From NCBI GenBank assembly GCA_947628435.1, contig CANQZW010000001.1, forward strand, positions 78,013-134,916: a stretch of DNA of 56,904 nt. Direction: 5' to 3'. Source of the stretch: an uncultured Bacilli bacterium. GTDB lineage: Bacteria; Bacillota_I; Bacilli_A; RF39; UBA660. Shown here one piece after another: positions 18,122 to 29,258 of this stretch (its first letter is position 1; every line of letters begins with the position of its first letter). The notes beneath the pieces were generated by a model, which was given only the letters and a program-made list of their open reading frames with translations, did no database searches and was not told the DNA's origin. The translations under genes and the position numbers were made by a program.

Positions 18122-20299
18122 TTATTCTGATTTACGGTCTTTTTTATTTTCATCATTTATTTTGTCTTTAACTAAAACATCTTTTCTTGATAAATTAAGT
18201 TTACCATTTTTAAATCCCGTAGCTTTTACAATTATTTCATCGCCTTCTTTTACTACGTCAGATGTTTTTACAACCCTTTTATCTGATAATTGGGAAATAT
18301 GTACTAATCCCTCGCAACCTTCCCATAATTCAACAAAGCAGCCTAATTCATCAATTACTTTTACTACACGTCCGGTATATATTTTACCAATTTCTACTTC
18401 TTTTACAACGTTTTTAATCATTTGGGCAGTACGATCAATTATATCTTGATTAGTATGATAGATTATTACTTTTCCATCCTCTTGAATATCTACTTTAACA
18501 GCGTTAATATCAGTTACGGTTTGTACGTTTGAAGATTCAAGAATTATCTTTGTAATCATTTCTCCACCCTTACCAATAACATCTTTTATTTTTAATGGGT
18601 CTATTTCAAATGTCATCGTTTTAGGTGCATACTTACTTACCTCTTTTCTTGGTTCTTTAATTTGTTTTGTTATTGTCTTTAATATTTCCATTCTAGCTTT
18701 TTTAGCTTGAGCTAGTGCTTCTTTTAAAATATTTTTAGTAATACCTTTAATTTTAATATCCATTTGCAGTGCACAAATACCATCTTTAGTACCTGCTACT
18801 TTAAAATCCATATCACCTAAATGATCTTCCATACCTTGAATATCAGTTAAAATTGTATAATCATCATTATCAGTTATAAGTCCCATTGCAATACCTGCAA
18901 CTGGAGATTTAATTGGAACACCAGCAGCCATAAGAGCCATGCAACCTGCACAAATAGATGCTTGCGATGAAGACCCATTTGATTCTAATATTTCTGATAC
19001 AACCCTTATTGTATAAGGAAATTCATCTTCTGAAGGAATAACCTGTAATAATGCTCTTTCTCCTAAAGCACCGTGACCTATTTCACGACGACCTGGAGCT
19101 CCATACCTTCCTGTTTCACCAACAGAAAATTGTGGGAAATTATAATGCAACATAAATCTTTTTTCATCTTCTGGTGATAACCCATCTATTATTTGATGTT
19201 CTCCTAAAGCTCCTAGTGTTACTACCGATAAACTTTGAGTTTCACCACGAGTAAACAAAGCAGAACCATGGGCTCTAGGAAGTAAGTCTATATCAGTTGA
19301 AAGAGGTCTTATTTCAGTCATTTTTCTTCCATCTGCTCTTTTCTTTTCCTTAACAACTATTTTCCTAAACACTTCATATTCAACTTTTTCTAAACATAAT
19401 TTAACCTTAGTTATTAACTCATTAAGTTCATCTTTATCTAACGATTCATTTTCATACTCAAATTTTGCTACTACATCTTCTTTTATCTTATCAATCGCAG
19501 CATATTTTTCTATCTTATCTTTAATACGCATTGCACCATCTAATGGTTCTTTAGCAAGAGCATAAATTTCATCTTTAAGTTCATCTGTTATTTCAAGAAC
19601 CTCATAATCCATTTTCTCTTGTCCAACTTCTTTTATTATTTTTTCCTCAAACTTAATAAGTTCTTTTACCGCATCATGTCCAAACATTAAAGCATCTAAC
19701 ATATCATCTTCAGATACTTCTTTTGCACCTGCCTCAACCATATTTATAGCATCAATTGTTCCTGCAACAGTTAAGTCTATATCACTTTCTTCTGCCTCAC
19801 TTACGGTAGGATTAATAATAAATTTACCATTAACCCTTCCTACTTTAACTCCCGCAATAGGACCATCAAACGGAATCTTACTAATTGATGTTGCCAAACT
19901 AGATCCAAGCATTGCAGTTAATTCTGGAGAATTATCAGGGTCAACTGATAATACGGTATTTACGATTTGAACTTCATTTCTAAAATTTTCTGGAAATAAA
20001 GGTCTCATAGGCCTATCTATCATTCTGGCTGCCAAAGTTGCAGCATCTGTTGGTCTTCCCTCCCTTTTAATAAATCCACCTGGTATTTTACCTACTGAAT
20101 ATAATTTTTCTTGATACAAAACCATAAGTGGGAAAAAATCAGATAATATATTAGCAGTTTTACTAACGCATACCGTAGATAAAACAACCGTATCACCATA
20201 TCTTACAAGTACTGCACCATGAGCTTGTTTAGCTAATTCACCTACTTCTACCGTTAAATTCCTTCCTTTAAATTCTGTTTGAAATATTCTTTTTTCCAT
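18122..20299 (-). CDS. pnp: polyribonucleotide nucleotidyltransferase
   Basis: [41 protein letters not shown] and S1 domains. Confidence 0.98.
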
Positions 20300-20356
20300 T
20301 ATTACATCTCCTTTTTATATAAAAAGACACCCAAAAAAGAGTGCCTACTTTTATTA

Positions 20357-20623
20357 TTACTTTCTTAATCCTAAACTCTTAATTAACACACGATATCTAT
20401 TAATATCAGTATTTTTAAGATAGTTTAATAAGTTACGTCTTTTACCAACCTTCATTAATAATCCTCTTTTAGAATGAAAATCGTGAATATTAACTTTTAA
20501 ATGTTCAGTTAAAACGTTAATTTCTTCTGTAAGTACAGCAATCTGAACCTCTGGAGAACCAGTATCACCTTCATGAGTTGCATACTTCTTAATTATAGCT
20601 TGTTTAACTTCCTTTTTTAACAT
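20357..20623 (-). CDS. rpsO: 30S ribosomal protein S15
   Basis: [13 protein letters not shown]...[23 protein letters not shown]. Confidence 0.98.
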
Positions 20624-20647
20624 GTTTATTCCTCCTTATTTAAAATA

Positions 20648-20705
20648 TTCGCCTTACCTAAGAATATGGTTAGGAGTACTTTCCAATACCTGAGATAAGG
20701 TAACA
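20648..20705 (-). ncRNA. ribosomal protein S15 leader (autoregulatory RNA)
   Basis: 5' UTR with CCTTATCT...AGGTAAGG closing helix around inner stems, between a TTGCAT-N17-TATATT promoter (20711-20739) and the rpsO RBS. Confidence 0.6.
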
Positions 20706-20891
20706 ATAATAATATACACTTATTTTGCTAAATATGCAAGATTTTTTGAGATTTTTTATTATTTATTACTTTCTTATGTTGTTTTAACATCATAATCTAT
20801 TTAATAATTAAACTTAATTTCTTTTGTTTAGTTTAATTTATAAAAAGACAACTACTTAATATTAATACGATATAATTAGTTTAAAAGCTTA

Positions 20892-21743
20892 TTATATAAG
20901 CATCTTATATGGTTTCATTTTAGAACTATCTTTATCATAAATTTTATAAATTGCAATTACCTTATTATTATAAATAAATGTTACGTAATTTTTATTATAA
21001 ATATTATCTATTAAACCACCATTTTTAATTATATTATATAATTTATCATCTATCGTAATACTGTTTTCATCTTTTAAAACATCAGTTATAGATAATATTT
21101 TATAATTACCATTTTTTATCTCATCTAACGTATATGATTCATTTATATTAAAATTTCCTTGTTTAATACGTACTAAATCGCTCATAGATCCTATTACATT
21201 AAGTTTATCATTAATATCTTTTATTAAACTTCTTATGTAAGTTCCCTTAGAAACTGTTACTTTAAAACTATACTTATCATAAGAAAAGTCTAACAACTCT
21301 ATTTTATAGATAGTAACTTTTCTTTTTGGTAATATAACCGTTTTTTTATCTCTTGCATATTCATATAGTTTTTTTCCATTTATTTTAACGGCACTATAAA
21401 TAGGAACCTCTTGATCATACGTACCAACAAAAGAATTTAAAACATCTATTAATTTATCTTTATCTAAATATTCTTTTTTTTGTTTTAAAATTTTACCATC
21501 AGTATCTAAAGTATCTGTTAAAATACCAAGTTTTACCGTTGCTATATATTCTTTATTAGTACTTGTTAAAACATCTACCAACTTAGTAGCTTTACCAATA
21601 CATAAAACAAGCAGTCCACTTGCAATTGGATCAAGAGTTCCCGTATGTCCTATTTTTTTAGTTTTAAATACTTTACACAAACAATTAACAACATCTCTAC
21701 TTGTAATTTTTTTTGGTTTATTAACAATTATTATTCCATTCAT
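20892..21743 (-). CDS. truB: tRNA pseudouridine(55) synthase TruB
   Basis: KIGHTGTLDPIASG, PIYSAVKINGKKLYEYAR, SKGTYIRSL. Confidence 0.97.
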   Translation of the reverse strand: MNGIIIVNKPKKITSRDVVNCLCKVFKTKKIGHTGTLDPIASGLLVLCIGKATKLVDVLTSTNKEYIATVKLGILTDTLDTDGKILKQKKEYLDKDKLIDVLNSFVGTYDQEVPIYSAVKINGKKLYEYARDKKTVILPKRKVTIYKIELLDFSYDKYSFKVTVSKGTYIRSLIKDINDKLNVIGSMSDLVRIKQGNFNINESYTLDEIKNGNYKILSITDVLKDENSITIDDKLYNIIKNGGLIDNIYNKNYVTFIYNNKVIAIYKIYDKDSSKMKPYKMLI

Positions 21744-21785
21744 TGTATCACCACATATATTTTAACATAAAAAAGAAAGTATTAA

Positions 21786-23783
21786 CTACTTTCTTTTTAA
21801 ATATCTACTTGGTCTAATAATATTACTTTCTTCGCTATCAAAATATTTAATTACGTTATCTACTTCAAATTCCCCGTTATCATTATTCATATGATAAGGA
21901 ATTCCATTATTATTTCTACGATAATCATTAATAATGTTAATTTCTTCATAATATCCAAGATATTCATTTGGTTCTAAAACATCTTTTACACTCTCTAAGT
22001 AATCAAATGAATCAGTAACATCATCTTCATTATAAATACCAGACGAAATTAACTCTAAGTATTGATCTAGTATATTAATAACACGCTTTTTACTTTCGAT
22101 AATTGTTTCATCATTTAACTTTTTATTTAAACCTTTTCTTAATATTTTAGAGATTTTTTTAATAGCTCTTGATTCATACAAATTACCATATTTATTTAAA
22201 TTAATACTATCAGATTGATATATTTTGCACTTTTCATTTGCTAATCTATTTCTTGAGCAGAATAATCTTACTCCTCCTATTATATCTGAATCTGAAATTC
22301 TTTTTTCATACTTTTTAATTTTATCTTTAAGAATTGATCTTTTTTGTTCATCAGTTTCTTCTTCTAATAGATGCTGGTTCTTTGCTATCATCTTTTTATT
22401 AAAGTTTTTAGCAATTTTAGTTCCCGCAACAAAAGTAACAATACCACCTAAAGCCTCTTTTATTCTAGTAGATAAACTATACTTTTTAAAATCTTTTGCT
22501 GTTAGTTTATTTTGATACTCATCTTGAACAAAATTATTATAAGTTGTTAAAACGTTATTATACTTTTCTTCAATTGTTAATTCTTCAATATTATCTTGCT
22601 TTTTATTAATATAATCATCAGGTAAATATTGATATCTATCTTTTAATTCTAACATTTTTTCTTCTTCTGGTTTAAAATCATTTGCTAAGTCATTTTCTAT
22701 TTTACTTAATAATTTTTCAAACTTAGATTGATTATTTTCCATTATTTGTTTTATTATTTCAAATAAATCATCTTTTACATATCCATCTTCTAATTCTTTA
22801 ACAGCGTTATATGCATTTTTAAAATCTATTGCTTTTTCAGTTTTTTGAGCTTGATTTACTAGGTCTTGAGCTTGTTTTTCTTGTAAACTTAAACCGCTTA
22901 TTTCTTCATTTATTTGTGCACTATTAGCTTGTAAATCATTTCTTATGTTTTCATCTTCTATTTTTTCAATCAAACTAATAGCATAATCTAATGCTTTTTT
23001 ATTCTTATTATTTTTTGCTATATCAAAATAATATTCAACTTCGCTAACTTTATTTTCTAAAGAATAATCTTCATTTGATTCTTCAGGAGTAACATTATTT
23101 TCCTTTTTAGCAACTGAATCATGTGTATTTATAATATTATTAATTTCATCAAAGAAATTTTCTACATTTAAATTTTTATTATCATTTAATAAATTTTCAA
23201 ATGCAATTTTCATATTATTTAATCTCATGATTTCTTCAATATTATTTTTCATGTTTTCTAATTCGTCATTATTAGAATTAGATAATTTATCAGTATTTAA
23301 AGCACTTGCAATTTCTTGTTTTTTATTATTTATTTCATCAATTAATTGTTCAACAGCTTTTTTTGCTAATAATATTTTTTCAAAATTATTATAACTTACT
23401 TGTTCTTTAGCTTGTTTTATAGCATTTTCCTTTTTTAAATAAGCTTCATCATAAGACATAATAAACTTATTTAATGAATCTAATTTTTTTCTTAATTCAA
23501 TTCGTTCCTCGGCAGTACAACTACTATTTGCTAATTTACGAGTAATTATTCTACATTTTCTTTTTGCAAATTCAACAGCTTTAATACCTCTTATATTTTT
23601 ATCATCACTACTAGATTTTATAACAAAATTAGCTTTTATTACAAACTTATCTAAAGTATTATTCCAATCATTTTCTATTTGGTTAATTGATTTTTCTAAT
23701 AAATCTTTAGAATCTTTTTCTAATTTTTCTATTTCGTTTTTTGTATTTTCAATTATAGATTTAAATGTGCTTTCTATATTCAT
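21786..23783 (-). CDS. large helical/coiled-coil hypothetical protein
   Basis: About 665 aa from ATG 23783 (GGGGGA RBS); E/K/N-rich heptad-like segments; no catalytic motif recognised. Confidence 0.75.
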   Translation of the reverse strand: MNIESTFKSIIENTKNEIEKLEKDSKDLLEKSINQIENDWNNTLDKFVIKANFVIKSSSDDKNIRGIKAVEFAKRKCRIITRKLANSSCTAEERIELRKKLDSLNKFIMSYDEAYLKKENAIKQAKEQVSYNNFEKILLAKKAVEQLIDEINNKKQEIASALNTDKLSNSNNDELENMKNNIEEIMRLNNMKIAFENLLNDNKNLNVENFFDEINNIINTHDSVAKKENNVTPEESNEDYSLENKVSEVEYYFDIAKNNKNKKALDYAISLIEKIEDENIRNDLQANSAQINEEISGLSLQEKQAQDLVNQAQKTEKAIDFKNAYNAVKELEDGYVKDDLFEIIKQIMENNQSKFEKLLSKIENDLANDFKPEEEKMLELKDRYQYLPDDYINKKQDNIEELTIEEKYNNVLTTYNNFVQDEYQNKLTAKDFKKYSLSTRIKEALGGIVTFVAGTKIAKNFNKKMIAKNQHLLEEETDEQKRSILKDKIKKYEKRISDSDIIGGVRLFCSRNRLANEKCKIYQSDSINLNKYGNLYESRAIKKISKILRKGLNKKLNDETIIESKKRVINILDQYLELISSGIYNEDDVTDSFDYLESVKDVLEPNEYLGYYEEINIINDYRRNNNGIPYHMNNDNGEFEVDNVIKYFDSEESNIIRPSRYLKRK

Positions 23784-23914
23784 TTGAAATTCCCCCTTTG
23801 TTTGAATGTCCAATATGTTATCACTATTTTTATATTTTGTCAATACCTATTTTTTTCTTTATAAATTAAAAAAAGCATACACTTTTTGTGCATACCTTAA
23901 ATCATTATTAATAT

Positions 23915-25273
23915 TTAACTGTTTTTTTTCAATACAACGTAACCAATAACAGCAATTACAACCATGATAAATGATAAAATTATAACACTTATTTTACCAC
24001 TTTTTTTATCTTGCTGTTCTTCTGAATCATTAGTATACATTTCATTTAAATACTGTTCATAAGAATCAGTTAAATAATATCTGTCTTTTCCCTTAAATAT
24101 ATGATCATAATAATTTTTAAAACTTACTGGCAATTTATTCTTATTTTTATTATATATTTTTTCAATTTCTGAAAAACTAGAATCATCTGGAATGTTAACA
24201 TCAATTAAAAGTTGTAAAGTAGTGATTGCAAACGCATATAAATCAGTTTTTTCACTTACAATTTTATTTAACGGATCGCGATACTTTTTAGCAACTTCAT
24301 TATTAATTACGCTATCTTTAATAACAAAAGCATCGCAATCTATTAATTTAACATTTCCATTTTTATCAAAGAAAATATTATCTGGATTAAGATCACAAAT
24401 ATATATTTTATTTTTGTGAAGTTTTTTCATTACTTTTTCTATTTCTTTTATTTTATCTATTTTTTCTTCAAAACTATAACTTTCACTTTTATTCCATAAA
24501 GCTTGTCCTTCAGGCAAATATTCCATAATATATCCAACAAATATACCATCATAATAAACTAAGTGCTTTGGTTTTATAATTTCAGGAATATCGATATTTT
24601 TAATATATTTTATCGTTTCTTCTCTATCTTTAACATACGTAAATGAAGTTGATGTAAACATTTTAAGAATTCTTCCATCTTGCGTTAAATATATATTACC
24701 AGATCTTCCAGATGCTATTTTTTTAACTAATTTTAAATCTTTATAATCCACAGAATCTGCTGGAATATCCCTGAATTTATCATTTAACATACGCATTCTA
24801 ACAGCAGAAATAACGTTAATACTTAATAGATTACCATCCTCATTAATACCCACTTCATAAAAACCAAGGGATTGATAAATCTTAAGCACATCTAAATTAT
24901 GCTCATCAACCGTAACAATAACGTTTCTAGAGCCTACCTCTCCTGCAATATATATAACCGCCTCAATTAAAAGAGCTTCCATATTTTTGTTTTTAAATTC
25001 ATCTAAAACATATACTTTATTTATTTCAACTTGAGAAACATTATTATTATTCTTAAATTCAAAGGTGGTGTATCCGATAAGCATTTTATTAGTTTGTATA
25101 ACCAAAGTTATTTTATTCCTAAAATATTCAGGAATAATATAATCATCTAAATCAAGCAAACAATCTTTTTTTATTGTTTCACTTGAAAAAGTATTGACAA
25201 TATCTGCAAAAACATCAAAATCTGTTTCTAATATCCCTAGGTTTAGATTTTCCTTTTTAACTAAATTTATCAC
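23915..25273 (-). CDS. GNAT domain + Ser/Thr protein kinase + C-terminal TM fusion protein
   Basis: GNAT: EINKVYVLDEFKNKN...NLDVLKIYQSLGF; kinase: IASGRSGNIY, ILKMF, YIMEYL, ICDLNPDNIFF, LIDCD, TDLYAFAI; terminal hydrophobic helix; probable GTG start at 25273. Confidence 0.85.
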   Translation of the reverse strand: MINLVKKENLNLGILETDFDVFADIVNTFSSETIKKDCLLDLDDYIIPEYFRNKITLVIQTNKMLIGYTTFEFKNNNNVSQVEINKVYVLDEFKNKNMEALLIEAVIYIAGEVGSRNVIVTVDEHNLDVLKIYQSLGFYEVGINEDGNLLSINVISAVRMRMLNDKFRDIPADSVDYKDLKLVKKIASGRSGNIYLTQDGRILKMFTSTSFTYVKDREETIKYIKNIDIPEIIKPKHLVYYDGIFVGYIMEYLPEGQALWNKSESYSFEEKIDKIKEIEKVMKKLHKNKIYICDLNPDNIFFDKNGNVKLIDCDAFVIKDSVINNEVAKKYRDPLNKIVSEKTDLYAFAITTLQLLIDVNIPDDSSFSEIEKIYNKNKNKLPVSFKNYYDHIFKGKDRYYLTDSYEQYLNEMYTNDSEEQQDKKSGKISVIILSFIMVVIAVIGYVVLKKNS

Positions 25274-25373
25274 TATATACCACCTACCTATCATTAATAT
25301 AATTATACATTGTTTTTAATCATATTTCTACAAAAAATACACGTTTTAATAAAAAAAAGAAATAAATTTCAAA

Positions 25374-25712
25374 TTATTCATTTATTTCTTTTATAATTTT
25401 TTCAATATTATTTGCATAAGATATGGACTCATCATATATAAATTTAAGATCTGGTATTTTTCTTATTTCTAACTTTCTTTTTGCTAATTCAGTTTTAATA
25501 AAACCTTTAGCAGCATTTAAGTCATGTAAACATTTTTCTTTTTTAGACTCATCAAGAACCGTACAATAAATTTGAGCAAGTGATAAATCAGTGTCAACTT
25601 TACATGCGGTTATGGTAACAAATTTAATATCTGAATCATAAACTTCATTTTGTAATATATCACTAATTTCTTTTATTAGTAAATTTGCTATTCTTTGTGT
25701 TTTAACACTCAT
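25374..25712 (-). CDS. rbfA: ribosome-binding factor A
   Basis: FVTIT..VDTDLSLA, AAKGFIK, IRKIPDLKFIYDESI. Confidence 0.95.
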   Translation of the reverse strand: MSVKTQRIANLLIKEISDILQNEVYDSDIKFVTITACKVDTDLSLAQIYCTVLDESKKEKCLHDLNAAKGFIKTELAKRKLEIRKIPDLKFIYDESISYANNIEKIIKEINE

Positions 25713-25715
25713 ACG

Positions 25716-27860
25716 TTACCTCTTTATTTCCACCAATTCATATGCTTCTATGATATCTTTTTCTTTTATATCTTGATAATTTTCTAAAGTAATACCACAT
25801 TCATAACCAGATTTTACTTCTTTTACTTGATTTTTTTCTCTTTGTATCGTATTGATATTACCATCATAAACAACAATACCATCTCTTATTAATCTTGCTT
25901 TAGCATCTGATTTTATAATACCATCTAAAACAAAGCACCCAGCAATATTACCAGTTTTAGAAAATTTATATATCTTTCTTATTTCTGCTTGACCTATTAC
26001 CTTTTCTTCATATAAAGGATCTAGCATTCCTTTCATAGCTGATTCCATCTCTTCAACAACTTTATAAATAATATTATGAAGTCTTACATCAACGCCATAT
26101 TCTTTTGCAATATCTAATATTTTACTAGATGGTCTAACATTAAAACCAATTATTATTGCTTTTGAGGCATTAGCTAGTACTATATCACTTTCAGTAATAG
26201 TTCCAACCCCACTTCTAATAATGTTTAGTTTGCATCCCTCAACCTCAATTTTAGATAAAGTATTTTTAACTGCTTCTTCACTACCTTTAACGTCAGTTTT
26301 TAATACGATATTAATTTCTTTTAATCCCTCGGATATCTTACTAAACAAATCATCCAAACTAATCGAATTTGATGACGTATTAGCTTTTAATTTTGCAACC
26401 TCACTTCTTTGCTCAGCAACACTATGAGCTTTCTTTTCAGAATCAAAAGCCATAAATTTATCACCAGCTGTTGGAACACCAGAAATACCAGTGACCTCAA
26501 CTGGCATTGAAGGAGCAGCCTCAACTACTTCTTCTCCTAAATCATTTTTTAAAGTTCTTACCTTTCCAAAATATTCTCCTACAACTATTGGATCTCCTAA
26601 TCTTAAAGTACCATTTTGAATTAATAAAGTTACTTGTGAACCAACATTTTTATCTAACTTCGATTCAATAACAGTACCAATTGCATAACGTCCAGGATTT
26701 GCTTTTAATTCTTGCATTTGTGCAACAAGTAACAAATTATCTAACAAATTATCTATTCCCTCATGAGTTTTTGCTGAAATATTAACAAATAAAGTATCCC
26801 CACCCCAAGCTTCAGGAGTAAGACCATTTTCACTCATTTCTCGCATAACTTTATCTACGTTAGCACCTGGTTTATCTATTTTATTTATTGCAACAATTAT
26901 AGGCACATTAGCGGCTTTAGCATGATCAATTGCCTCTTTTGTTTGAGGCATAACACCATCATCCGCTGCAACTATTATAATTACTATATCAGTAATAGAT
27001 GCACCTCTTGCTCTCATCTCAGTAAAAGCTGCGTGTCCTGGAGTATCTATAAAAGTAATTAACTTATCATTATATTTAACTTGATACGCACCAATATGCT
27101 GAGTTATACCACCAAATTCACCATCTACAACACTACTTTTTCTAATTGCATCTAAAAGCGATGTTTTACCATGATCAACATGTCCCATGATAGTAACAAC
27201 CGCAGGTCTTTCTTTTAAATCTTTTTCATCATCATTTACTTCATACTTCTCAAAATTTGTAATGTCCACAGACTCCTGTTTTTTTAAAGTTTTATTAAAT
27301 TCAAGTGCAATAACTGATGCATCATCAAAACTTATCTTTGCGTTCATATTTGCCATAACACCTAAACTCATAAGTTTTTTTAATAAATCAGAAACAGAAA
27401 CATTAAGACTCTCAGCGAAATCCTTAATTGTCATTGCATCTTTATACAATACAACATTATCTAAAGATTCTCCCTCATTAGAAACTAACTTTTCTTTATT
27501 CTTATACATTGCCTTTTTAGCATCTTTTATATCTTTTTGTTTATTCTTATTCTTTTTCTTCTTTAAAGGAGCAGGTTCACTACTATAAATAGTATCTTTC
27601 TTATCAATTAATGTATCAACCACCTCATCATAGTAGTCATCTTCTTCCATCTTTTTTATTATCTCTTCATCTTGTTTTATTTCCTCATCCAAAGATTCTT
27701 CTTGTTCTTCATTTGAAAAAGCATTGTCTAATAAAACTATCGCATCATCATCAAGTAAATCATCTTCATTTGACACATCAATGTTCAATTTTTTACACAT
27801 TTGTAAGATGTCATCAACATTCTTATTCATATCATCTGCGTATTCTAAAACACTCATCAT
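25716..27860 (-). CDS. infB: translation initiation factor IF-2
   Basis: RPAVVTIMGHVDHGKTSLLD, DTPGHAAF, AINKID, ECGITL. Confidence 0.98.
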   Translation of the reverse strand: MMSVLEYADDMNKNVDDILQMCKKLNIDVSNEDDLLDDDAIVLLDNAFSNEEQEESLDEEIKQDEEIIKKMEEDDYYDEVVDTLIDKKDTIYSSEPAPLKKKKNKNKQKDIKDAKKAMYKNKEKLVSNEGESLDNVVLYKDAMTIKDFAESLNVSVSDLLKKLMSLGVMANMNAKISFDDASVIALEFNKTLKKQESVDITNFEKYEVNDDEKDLKERPAVVTIMGHVDHGKTSLLDAIRKSSVVDGEFGGITQHIGAYQVKYNDKLITFIDTPGHAAFTEMRARGASITDIVIIIVAADDGVMPQTKEAIDHAKAANVPIIVAINKIDKPGANVDKVMREMSENGLTPEAWGGDTLFVNISAKTHEGIDNLLDNLLLVAQMQELKANPGRYAIGTVIESKLDKNVGSQVTLLIQNGTLRLGDPIVVGEYFGKVRTLKNDLGEEVVEAAPSMPVEVTGISGVPTAGDKFMAFDSEKKAHSVAEQRSEVAKLKANTSSNSISLDDLFSKISEGLKEINIVLKTDVKGSEEAVKNTLSKIEVEGCKLNIIRSGVGTITESDIVLANASKAIIIGFNVRPSSKILDIAKEYGVDVRLHNIIYKVVEEMESAMKGMLDPLYEEKVIGQAEIRKIYKFSKTGNIAGCFVLDGIIKSDAKARLIRDGIVVYDGNINTIQREKNQVKEVKSGYECGITLENYQDIKEKDIIEAYELVEIKR

Positions 27861-27878: not shown

Positions 27879-28148
27879 TTAGCTATTATTACTTATAACA
27901 CTCCTTAATTCATCATAAATATCATCTGATATTTGTGTGTTTAAATAACGTTCTAAGACTTTAGTTTTTTTGGCTAAATTAACGACTTCTAAATCTTTTT
28001 TTAAATATGCTCCGTGACCATTTAACTTGCCAGTTAAATCAACTGCTACATTACCTTTATTATCCTTAACTACTCTTATAAGATCTTTTTTAGGAAATTT
28101 TTCCTTGGTAACAACACACGAACGCATTGGTATTTTTCTTTGTTTCAA
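27879..28148 (-). CDS. ylxR: YlxR (DUF448/RnpM) RNA-binding protein
   Basis: KIPMRSCVVTKEKFPKKDLIRVV...GHGAYL; follows nusA. Confidence 0.92.
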   Translation of the reverse strand: MKQRKIPMRSCVVTKEKFPKKDLIRVVKDNKGNVAVDLTGKLNGHGAYLKKDLEVVNLAKKTKVLERYLNTQISDDIYDELRSVISNNS

Positions 28149-28163
28149 AATTAATCACCAACC

Positions 28164-29258
28164 TTAAGATATTGCATTAGATAAATCAATATTTTCTTCT
28201 TTTACTTGCTCTTTTGTTTTTACATCTATTTTATAATGAGTTAAGCGTGCAGCTAATCTAACATTTTGACCTTTTTTACCAATGGCCAAAGACAAATTAT
28301 CTCCTTCTGCAATTGCTAAGGCCTCATTTTTCTTTTCATCTAAAATGTATACCTCAACATCCTTAGCTGGAGATAAAGCATTCTTAATAAATTTTATTGG
28401 ATCTTTATCATATAAAACTACATCTATTTTTTCTCCATTTAATTCATTTGAAACATTGTTAATTCTTGTTCCTTTTTCACCAATACAAGCCCCTATTGCA
28501 TCGACATTATTATCCTCAGAATATACAGCTATTTTACTTCTTAAACCAGCATCTCGTGCAACACTATATAATATTACCGTTCCATCATTTAACTCTGGTA
28601 TTTCTTTTTCAAGTAGTCTTTTTACAAATCCATAATGAGATCTAGATAATAATATTAATGGGCTTTTACCTGAATCATCTATTTTTGTAACATATACTTT
28701 AACCATTGATCCCATTGTTAAAGACTCACCCTTTATTAATTCTGTCTTAGGAAGAATACCATGCATTCTACCTAAATCTACATAATAATTTTGTGAATCT
28801 TCCCTAGATAAAGTACCAACTAATAACTCACCTTGTTTATCTTCAAACTCAGACATTATACTTTGTCTTTCAGCTTCCCTTACCTTTTGAACTAATATTT
28901 GTTTTGCAGCCATCGTTGCAACACGACCAAAATCTTTTAACACTACTTCCTCTTCTATTGTCTCACCTGGTTTAATATCTGGAACAATTTTTTTAGCATC
29001 ATTAAGTAGTATTTCAACAGATTCCTCACCGTCTTCATCTTCCTCACCATCAGTATATTCCGTTACTACCTTTTGATATGAATAACCCTTTATTTCCCCT
29101 GTATCTTTATTTATATCTATTCTAATATTTGGAAGACCAGTTTCCTTAGTATATGCCTTTTCTAAAGCTACTTTCATTCCATCAAATATAACATCCTCAC
29201 TTATTTGTTTTTCAGCACAAATATTTTTTAAAGCTTTTATAAATTCTTCACTATTCAT
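28164..29258 (-). CDS. nusA: transcription factor NusA
   Basis: DFGRVATMAAKQ, S1 and KH domains, GACIGEKG, LSLAIGKKGQNVRLAARLT. Confidence 0.97.
   Translation of the reverse strand: MNSEEFIKALKNICAEKQISEDVIFDGMKVALEKAYTKETGLPNIRIDINKDTGEIKGYSYQKVVTEYTDGEEDEDGEESVEILLNDAKKIVPDIKPGETIEEEVVLKDFGRVATMAAKQILVQKVREAERQSIMSEFEDKQGELLVGTLSREDSQNYYVDLGRMHGILPKTELIKGESLTMGSMVKVYVTKIDDSGKSPLILLSRSHYGFVKRLLEKEIPELNDGTVILYSVARDAGLRSKIAVYSEDNNVDAIGACIGEKGTRINNVSNELNGEKIDVVLYDKDPIKFIKNALSPAKDVEVYILDEKKNEALAIAEGDNLSLAIGKKGQNVRLAARLTHYKIDVKTKEQVKEENIDLSNAIS

Follow-up and report, generated by a model that had tools for sequence, protein, structure and literature searches.

A GNAT domain joined to a variant Hanks-type kinase and a predicted C-terminal membrane helix in one genus of uncultured Bacilli

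Bacterial Hanks-type kinases are usually controlled by extracellular sensors or by phosphorylation of the activation loop. PrkC, PknB, and Stk1 carry the HRD and DFG signatures together with extracellular PASTA domains. YabT of B. subtilis is a Hanks kinase with a C-terminal transmembrane (TM) segment and no extracellular domain, which is activated via a highly basic juxtamembrane segment that binds DNA and which phosphorylates EF-Tu (PMC6333020). In YegI, DSD replaces DFG and the catalytic loop, VGDxxQxS, lacks His-Arg; the enzyme is active with a preference for Mn2+, and changing DSD to DFG abolishes activity. YegI is a membrane protein with two TM segments whose termini both lie in the cytosol, and there is a PP2C gene near its own (10.1101/819920). 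Here, we describe a protein with neither of the usual means of control. It is encoded in a stretch of 56,904 nucleotides (the window; G+C content of about 25%) from an uncultured Bacilli bacterium, positions 78,013 to 134,916 of contig CANQZW010000001.1 in assembly GCA_947628435.1, and it joins an N-terminal GNAT-fold domain to a Hanks-type kinase domain and a C-terminal TM helix. We refer to it as the GNAT-kinase-TM protein.

The gene lies on the reverse strand of the window at 23915..25273 and encodes 452 amino acids from a GTG start codon, with its stop codon at 23915-23917. The open reading frame (ORF) as called mechanically is longer (23915..25294, reverse strand, 459 amino acids), and we place the true start at the GTG at 25273 because homologues are 451 to 455 amino acids long and begin MINLVKK, because ATG stands at the same codon in 13 of 17 orthologous loci, and because a GGTGG ribosome-binding site (25280..25284, reverse strand) lies 6 nt upstream. 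G-rich sites occur at the same spot in the orthologous loci. Reading along the protein, and always on the reverse strand, the GNAT-fold domain spans residues 1-160 (24794..25273), with its acetyl-CoA loop at residues 92-99; the kinase domain spans residues 169-414 (24032..24769); an acidic, variable juxtamembrane linker spans residues 415-427 (23993..24031), with a predicted local distance difference test score (pLDDT) below 50 at residues 423-426; and the predicted C-terminal TM helix spans residues 428-448 (23930..23992). From I428 to L448 the Kyte-Doolittle 19-mer mean is 3.1, and only four residues (KKNS) follow. A C-terminal TM helix is present in 122 of 122 relatives, that is, in the best 120 matches of the homologue search and two 50%-cluster representatives. 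The residues that precede the helix (411-427) include five acidic and three basic residues and differ between species. Thus, both domains are apparently joined to the inner, cytoplasmic face of the membrane by the predicted helix. The original prediction had the coordinates exactly right, as homologue lengths, the ATG codons, and the ribosome-binding site indicate, and its three-part architecture is real and kept across orthologues by the evidence of Pfam, motifs, and hydropathy.

The kinase half has a genuine Hanks-type fold, but the chemistry of its active site is altered. The protein matches Pkinase (PF00069) at 42.6 bits against a Pfam cutoff of 31.7 (E = 6e-11), and its best sequence match among solved structures is the kinase domain of S. 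aureus Stk1 (4eqm; E = 5e-8). NCBIfam gave only matches far below threshold (MAD6 kinase, LanKC and LanL kinase domains, Kdo kinase, Bud32, PaiA, and RimI). In an AlphaFold2 (AF2) model, residues 169-412 align with protein kinases at VIA Z scores of 18 to 19 and root mean square deviations (RMSD) of 3.3 to 4.1 over 225 to 243 residues. M. tuberculosis PknB (1mru; Z 18.6) is among the matches, as is YabT (6g4j; Z 17.5, RMSD 3.8 over 232 residues), which does not rise above many other kinases and so marks no specific kinship. Foldseek likewise matched the model to protein kinases at E values of about 1e-10, and the model has a bilobal kinase fold that includes alpha-F and the C-lobe helices. The lists of fold-search matches were filled by the kinase domain, and thus the structural matches concern the kinase half.

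The active site is unorthodox. It comprises a Gly loop (G189/G192), K204, E218/E219, a catalytic loop that reads I292-C293-D294-L-N296-P-D-N299, and D312-C313-D314, which aligns with the DFG of Stk1. Residues G189, K204, E218, E219, H286, C293, D294, N299, C313, D314, D333, and D344 are invariant in all 122 relatives, with D312 found in 121 and G192 in 120. Hence the Gly loop, the Lys, the ICDLNPDN non-RD loop, and the DCD in place of DFG are all present and kept, as had been read from the single sequence. The catalytic loop has the consensus I/V/M-C-D-L-N-P-D-N among the relatives, and D344 is the alpha-F Asp, followed by conserved helices alpha-G to alpha-I that complete the C-lobe. The GNAT-kinase-TM protein does not carry the canonical HRDLKxxN and DFG signatures and is thus a non-RD, DxD variant. 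Moreover, the orthologue alignment holds no conserved Ser or Thr between DCD and the DP that stands in for APE. Since the loop has no RD arginine and no Ser or Thr is kept in the activation segment, the kinase is probably competent without activation-loop phosphorylation, and control must then come from elsewhere. The kinase half is apparently active, because its catalytic residues are conserved and because YegI, also a DxD kinase, is reported to be active in experiments (10.1101/819920).

The best matches of the protein outside its own family are stand-alone Bacillota kinases of about 250 or about 565 amino acids that carry the motifs DLN..N and IDxD (E = 1e-19 to 1e-10). They have in common with the GNAT-kinase-TM protein the consensus GxEGxIY ... 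K ... LH...DLNxxN ... IDxD ... DxYxF, but they lack both the GNAT domain and the TM helix, are only 20 to 28% identical to it, and lie in varied genomic contexts. In a 64-sequence alignment that adds such distant kinase relatives, K204 and N299 are invariant and D294, D312, D314, and D344 occur in at least 90% of the members, most of which match Pkinase and some of which match Kdo, RIO1, or ABC1. By these shared motifs, the kinase half is a member of a wider, uncharacterized DLN/IDxD clade in Bacillota. The forms of about 565 amino acids have an unannotated C-terminal half. Ten loci of the small stand-alone kinases showed varied housekeeping neighbors and no consistent partner or mobile element. 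Several of the small kinases (L020-L029) sit beside translation genes (cysS-truB, a pseudouridine synthase gene, pheT, and gltX), two sit beside genes for an XerC/D-like integrase and MgsA, and at one locus in a sister genus (L025, 213-3824) a Cas9-like gene with HNH, RuvC_III, and the Cas9 alpha-helical lobe lies about 1 kb from the kinase gene. Proteins of 435 to 451 amino acids (P0152, P0163, P0165, P0171, P0228, P0253, and P0262) were considered as the same architecture, since their kinase sits at the same position, and set aside because a GNAT domain and a TM helix are missing; they combine an unannotated N-terminal domain of about 160 residues with a kinase that carries VGDLK/IDxGSFQ and constitute a separate, uncharacterized architecture.

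Among characterized kinases, YegI is the only look-alike that we could document for the DLN/IDxD kinases. Compared by motifs only, E. coli YegI and the GNAT-kinase-TM protein are both membrane proteins with DxD for DFG and a catalytic loop without His-Arg, and the likeness that the original prediction drew holds at that level (DSD versus DCD). YegI differs by its two TM segments, a long C-terminal part, the lack of a GNAT domain, a Ser at the position of Asn299, and the nearby PP2C gene. The same prediction had invoked the TerY-associated group, but no association with TerY, vWA, or PP2C was seen; the only PP2C gene found in the genome lies on contig 19, next to a canonical PrkC-like kinase of 588 amino acids that is 24% identical to the GNAT-kinase-TM protein (BLASTP E = 4e-4). 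YabT has the same topology of a cytoplasmic Hanks kinase on a single C-terminal TM helix without an extracellular sensor. It differs in having no N-terminal domain and in its basic juxtamembrane segment, where the present protein has an acidic, variable linker. PrkC, PknB, and Stk1 have the same kinase fold but differ in the signatures and extracellular domains named above.

The N-terminal half passes the Pfam cutoff for Acetyltransf_1 (PF00583; 27.9 bits against 20.7, E = 3e-6). The secondary structure string that DSSP gives for the model fits the order beta1-alpha1-alpha2-beta2-4-alpha3-beta5-alpha4-beta6-7, which is the canonical order of strands and helices in GNAT proteins. The nearest solved relatives of the domain profile are PaiA (1tiq; E = 1e-6) and SSAT2 (2bei; E = 6e-4), and a search of the ESM Atlas with residues 1-168 returned generic GNAT clusters only. 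The likeness to PaiA and SSAT is thus at the level of the generic fold, together with the Tyr of a ...Y..lGF motif, to which Y133 aligns; Y133, found in all 122 relatives, would be the general acid. PaiA and SSAT differ in carrying the pyrophosphate-loop motif A, Q/R-x-x-G-x-G/A. Residues 92-99 of the GNAT-kinase-TM protein read EFKNKNME, and a hidden Markov model alignment to PaiA and SSAT2 puts K94, N97, and E99 at the signature positions, so the motif is replaced by K94-N-K-N97-M-E99 and the reported lack of the usual glycines in an otherwise recognizable GNAT domain is borne out. Gly appears at the signature positions in only a few orthologues, and E99 is invariant in 121 of 122. At loop positions 95 and 97, some orthologues have Asn and others Gly (KNKGIE, NGKMME, LNKGME, RGKNME), and the loop diverges further in the two most distant members of the family (SSSFLEKQME, NTGFDKNQMK). 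The column that aligns with what we assume to be the general-base Glu of SSAT varies among N, S, E, D, and K. About seven GNAT genes were found in the 0.98-Mb genome. None of its proteins scored above the NCBIfam cutoff for RimI, the best being a 151-amino-acid GNAT protein on contig 21 (34 bits against a cutoff of 86).

The AF2 model built from the 64-sequence alignment has a mean pLDDT of 92.8 and a predicted template modeling score (pTM) of 0.84. It consists of a GNAT-like alpha/beta domain (residues 1-153; pLDDT 93 to 98 in the GNAT part) with a connecting helix, the bilobal kinase (169-414), the low-confidence linker, and a terminal helix (427-451). The pTM suggests a fixed arrangement of the two domains. 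When the GNAT part (1-168) and the kinase (169-415) were folded as separate chains, the median ipSAE was 0.32, compared to 0.00 for the best of three controls, a passing score, but one in the range up to 0.60, from which came only 18 of 157 solved complexes and both of the mismatched pairs that passed; in all, 116 of the solved complexes reached the calibrated mark, as did 2 mismatched pairs out of 215. Contacts were at least 90% alike between runs, and the pLDDT of the partner was 86. As to the gating by a GNAT sensor that the original prediction put forward, the models lend weak support to docking of the GNAT domain on the kinase.

The GNAT-kinase-TM gene is a core gene of one genus, single copy and syntenic. 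Full-length orthologues of 54 to 87% identity occur in 23 of 24 other genomes of the genus, the 24th (G006) holding a fragment at a contig edge, and with two further genomes that also carry the gene, it is found in 26 of 26. Outside the genus, an even draw of 151 genomes from 86 genera of the order returned the full-length form only from its own genus, with the full architecture in 0 of the 147 genomes of other genera. In 21 of those 147 there were only kinase-only ORFs (243 to 353 amino acids, 22 to 34% identity; small stand-alone kinases were counted at E <= 1e-5), PrkC-like kinases, or GNAT-only ORFs. A search of 1.84 billion representative proteins gave 11 matches at E <= 1e-30, all from this one family; two are full length (454 and 452 amino acids), and the rest are fragments or, in one case, a chimeric call. 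One protein of 378 amino acids (P0128) consists of the first 101 residues of the GNAT-kinase family followed by the C-terminal part of an arginyl-tRNA synthetase and is probably the product of a chimeric contig or gene call. In the ESM Atlas, the whole protein fell in one cluster of 117 members with the same makeup. The presence of orthologues across the genomes of the genus indicates that the fusion is not an assembly artifact, and its lineage is narrow.

Purifying selection acts on both domains. Between L015 and L016 (dS 0.32), the ratio of nonsynonymous to synonymous substitution rates (dN/dS) is 0.05 in residues 1-55, 0.07 in the GNAT core, 0.04 in the kinase, and 0.40 in the tail; other pairs with usable dS gave 0.02 to 0.10 in both domains, and the tail overall gave 0.2 to 0.5. 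Residues 1-55, on the substrate side, are the best-conserved stretch of the GNAT domain, with a mean pairwise identity of 0.74 versus 0.62 in the GNAT core. Selection on the GNAT half means that it is functional in some sense. Full-text literature searches found no description of a bacterial fusion of GNAT and Hanks kinase domains, and a review of bifunctional kinases names only the eukaryotic TAF1 and CIITA as kinase-acetyltransferases (PMC9138534). Together with the restriction of all close matches to one family, this upholds the earlier impression that the architecture had not been described. To judge from the sequences, the protein is a new domain combination of known parts, confined to one genus. 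It may have originated in the ancestor of the genus, when a GNAT gene would have been joined to a kinase of the DLN...N / IDxD type and a C-terminal TM helix added. Two sister genera (L061 and L067) have ORFs of 174 to 176 amino acids in the rbfA-truB gap, which were tried as the ancestor of the GNAT half and rejected, as their hhalign probability against the GNAT profile was below 1%; one of them has a subthreshold GNAT match.

How the three parts work together can be proposed from the fold, motifs, predicted topology, conservation, distribution, and transcription signals observed here. We favor a membrane-tethered, constitutively competent protein kinase with the GNAT domain as a built-in module for ligand binding or targeting, a reading to which we give an even chance. 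The lineage-specific kinase would face the cytoplasm, tail anchored in the membrane, and would be competent without phosphorylation of its activation loop. The N-terminal GNAT-fold domain would sit against the kinase domain as its control or targeting element and may bind a small ligand (acyl-CoA or another metabolite) or a protein substrate via the very conserved face formed by beta1, alpha1, and alpha2, which includes D18, F19, D41, Y45, P48, and F51. That the kinase is active, that its substrates are proteins and not small molecules, and what the GNAT domain does are inferred here. Several observations weigh against this proposal. In the catalytic loop, N296 takes the place of the Lys, and phosphotransfer could be weaker as a result. 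Neither signature glycine is present in the GNAT loop, whose last position holds an invariant Glu, so acyl-CoA binding is uncertain. The docking test was graded as weak support and returned no interface, and a first AF2 run on 13 close orthologues gave a pLDDT of 66 with an unresolved N-lobe before the 64-sequence run superseded it. Finally, in the most divergent orthologue (G005, locus L013; 54% identity), Tyr replaces the catalytic Asp and the Gly loop is gone, yet the gene has been kept, which argues for a noncatalytic role in that species at least. That copy (L013, G005:C34, 3049-4386) may be a pseudokinase there. The first ORF of the same contig begins with a stretch that, to our eye, resembles a translated mammalian repeat and could mean a chimeric contig end.

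The gene lies in a translation-operon setting, with all genes on the reverse strand: nusA (28164-29258), ylxR (27879-28148), infB (25716-27860), and rbfA (25374-25712) upstream and truB (20892-21743), rpsO (20357-20623), and pnp (18122-20299) downstream. By sequence reading, the nusA-infB-rbfA unit ends in a terminator-like AT-rich hairpin and T-run over the rbfA stop codon (25351..25388, reverse strand), which is too AT rich for a consensus terminator scan to pick up. A hairpin and T-run are found there in most of the 17 orthologous loci. The kinase gene appears to have a promoter of its own, TAGAAA and TATAAT separated by 17 nt with TG before the -10 element (25302..25330, reverse strand; 10 of 12 consensus matches), and all 17 loci show this promoter ahead of the gene, including that of G005, where the upstream gene is different. 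Right after the kinase stop codon, the consensus scan found a terminator-like hairpin of 11 pairs with a T-run (23872..23898, reverse strand), one of two sites in 5.8 kb versus 0.5 expected; the other follows rpsO. A hairpin, a T-run, or both follow the stop codon in orthologous loci as well. Thus, from its predicted promoter and terminators, the gene is a transcription unit of its own. A search for RNA sequencing runs that cover window positions 20300-26000 listed none.

Gene order is conserved within the genus. The order infB-rbfA-kinase gene is seen in 14 of 16 other loci, the exceptions being L008, where only the end of rbfA remains at a contig edge, and the locus of G005, where the kinase gene and its promoter have been relocated between a recX-like gene and rpsO. 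Wherever the flank is long enough, a long variable ORF and then truB lie downstream. The original prediction had the gene inserted between rbfA and truB as normally adjacent genes; it does lie there, but together with a second gene, an ORF for a coiled-coil protein. Among 29 loci of sister genera (L045-L073), truB follows rbfA within 77 bp in only 8, lies at 501 to 967 bp in 3, and is not within 1.5 kb in 18. The gap in sister genera holds genes for HAD hydrolase (five loci), DeoC (two), dUTPase, ThiF, DHH/DHHA1, formate-THF ligase (FTHFS), Fic, MiaA, and an Ig-like surface protein, as well as several ORFs with no family assigned. The rbfA-truB junction is therefore a permissive insertion hot spot in this bacterial family, and with unrelated genes in the gap, guilt by association with translation is weak.

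The coiled-coil ORF (21786-23843 as called, 685 amino acids; reverse strand) is a separate transcription unit. Its predicted promoter, TTGACA and TAACAT separated by 17 nt and with TG (23815..23843, reverse strand), overlaps the TTG called as the start of the 685-amino-acid ORF, and with that start inside the promoter, the protein is probably 665 amino acids long, from the second Met (21786..23783). The stored protein (P0271) has that length. A TTGAC-type box, a -10 box, and the leader GGCATTCAAACAAAAGGGGGA precede the gene in most loci of the genus. The ORF is rich in K, N, and E, and its positional orthologues (612 to 906 amino acids) are 24 to 36% identical at loci L014 and L016-L019, where the kinase is 60 to 87% identical. 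We saw no TM or hydrophobic segment and no signal peptide in it, and Pfam, NCBIfam, and PADLOC assigned it to no family, apart from a stray match to Csm3 (E = 1e-4) with no passing stretch. A homologue search with the protein returned only itself.

Other functions can be set against the one that we favor. The protein could be truly bifunctional, an active N-acetyltransferase and an active kinase that modify the same or linked membrane-proximal protein substrates, which we consider possible though doubtful. That the GNAT domain passes its Pfam cutoff, is as strongly constrained by purifying selection as the kinase, and keeps the Tyr of PaiA and SSAT2 in every relative would fit such an enzyme, and so would the interchange of Asn and Gly at positions 95 and 97, which, from residue propensities, points to a loop that may need a Gly-like backbone. 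Nevertheless, the loop departs from Q/R-x-x-G-x-G/A, ends in Glu almost throughout, and is more divergent still in two distant members, and the column of the presumed general base is variable. A two-step modifier of small molecules at the membrane, with an antibiotic, polyamine, lipid, or cell envelope precursor as its substrate, would have a model in AAC(6')-Ie/APH(2'')-Ia, which we take to be a soluble, bifunctional aminoglycoside-modifying enzyme of similar length in which a kinase-fold domain comes after an N-terminal GNAT domain. The analogy seems improbable to us. The order of domains would be the same, the nearest solved GNAT proteins are polyamine acetyltransferases, the subthreshold matches include Kdo kinase and the kinase domains of class III/IV lanthionine synthetases, and the DLNxxN loop lacks the Lys typical of protein kinases. 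The kinase half of AAC(6')-Ie/APH(2'')-Ia belongs to the APH family, however, and PF01636 is not among the Pfam matches of the window protein at E <= 0.1 and is matched by only 1 of the 64 members of the kinase alignment (A2). Moreover, the protein resembles protein kinases both in fold and in sequence and has their full C-lobe, D344 and alpha-G to alpha-I included, and the ORF list of the window has no biosynthetic, transport, or precursor genes beside the kinase gene.

Two further functions, both raised in the original prediction, fared poorly. One is that the protein acts on the translation apparatus, phosphorylating or acetylating a ribosomal protein or translation factor at the membrane, and we find this hard to credit. 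The locus between infB-rbfA and truB-rpsO-pnp is conserved across the genus, the genome has no RimI above the cutoff while the GNAT-kinase-TM protein itself has weak NCBIfam matches to RimI (22 bits, cutoff 86) and Bud32, and YabT is reported to phosphorylate EF-Tu (PMC6333020). Those RimI and Bud32 scores are far under their cutoffs, however, and the gene, with its own promoter at every locus and terminators on both sides, is not tied to transcription of the operon. It has also moved, promoter included, to follow a recX-like gene in G005, and sister genera fill the same gap with unrelated genes and seldom keep truB near rbfA. The other is an anti-phage or stress defense kinase, possibly in concert with the coiled-coil gene, which strikes us as most improbable. 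PADLOC gave weak, partial matches to MkoA (E = 1e-10), mad6 (E = 1e-9), and PD-T4-6 (E = 8e-9), within a range of 1e-10 to 1e-2, and the coiled-coil neighbor evolves very fast. The matches nevertheless reach no further than the generic kinase core of models that are much longer, the partner genes of those systems are absent from the neighborhood, and the coiled-coil gene is a separate unit with its own conserved promoter. Furthermore, a single-copy, syntenic gene under low dN/dS (0.03 to 0.08) that is present at a fixed locus in every genome of the genus searched is unlike a defense island.

We speculate, while regarding it as rather unlikely, that the GNAT fold is a pseudoenzyme or slow enzyme that reads the acyl-CoA state and directly gates the non-RD membrane kinase or, alternatively, that one substrate receives a combined mark, acetyl from one half and phospho from the other. 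The biological payoff is uncertain and the fusion is limited to one genus, and because the host organisms are uncultured, the protein is accessible only by heterologous study. It offers an entry to the wide, unstudied DLN/IDxD kinase clade in Bacillota. If the GNAT domain binds acyl-CoA, acetylation-type metabolism and phosphorylation signaling would be linked in one molecule. Were gating by acyl-CoA true, the level of a central metabolite would be converted to Ser/Thr phosphorylation within one polypeptide, and the protein would represent a new type of one-component metabolic sensor kinase in gut bacteria with reduced genomes.

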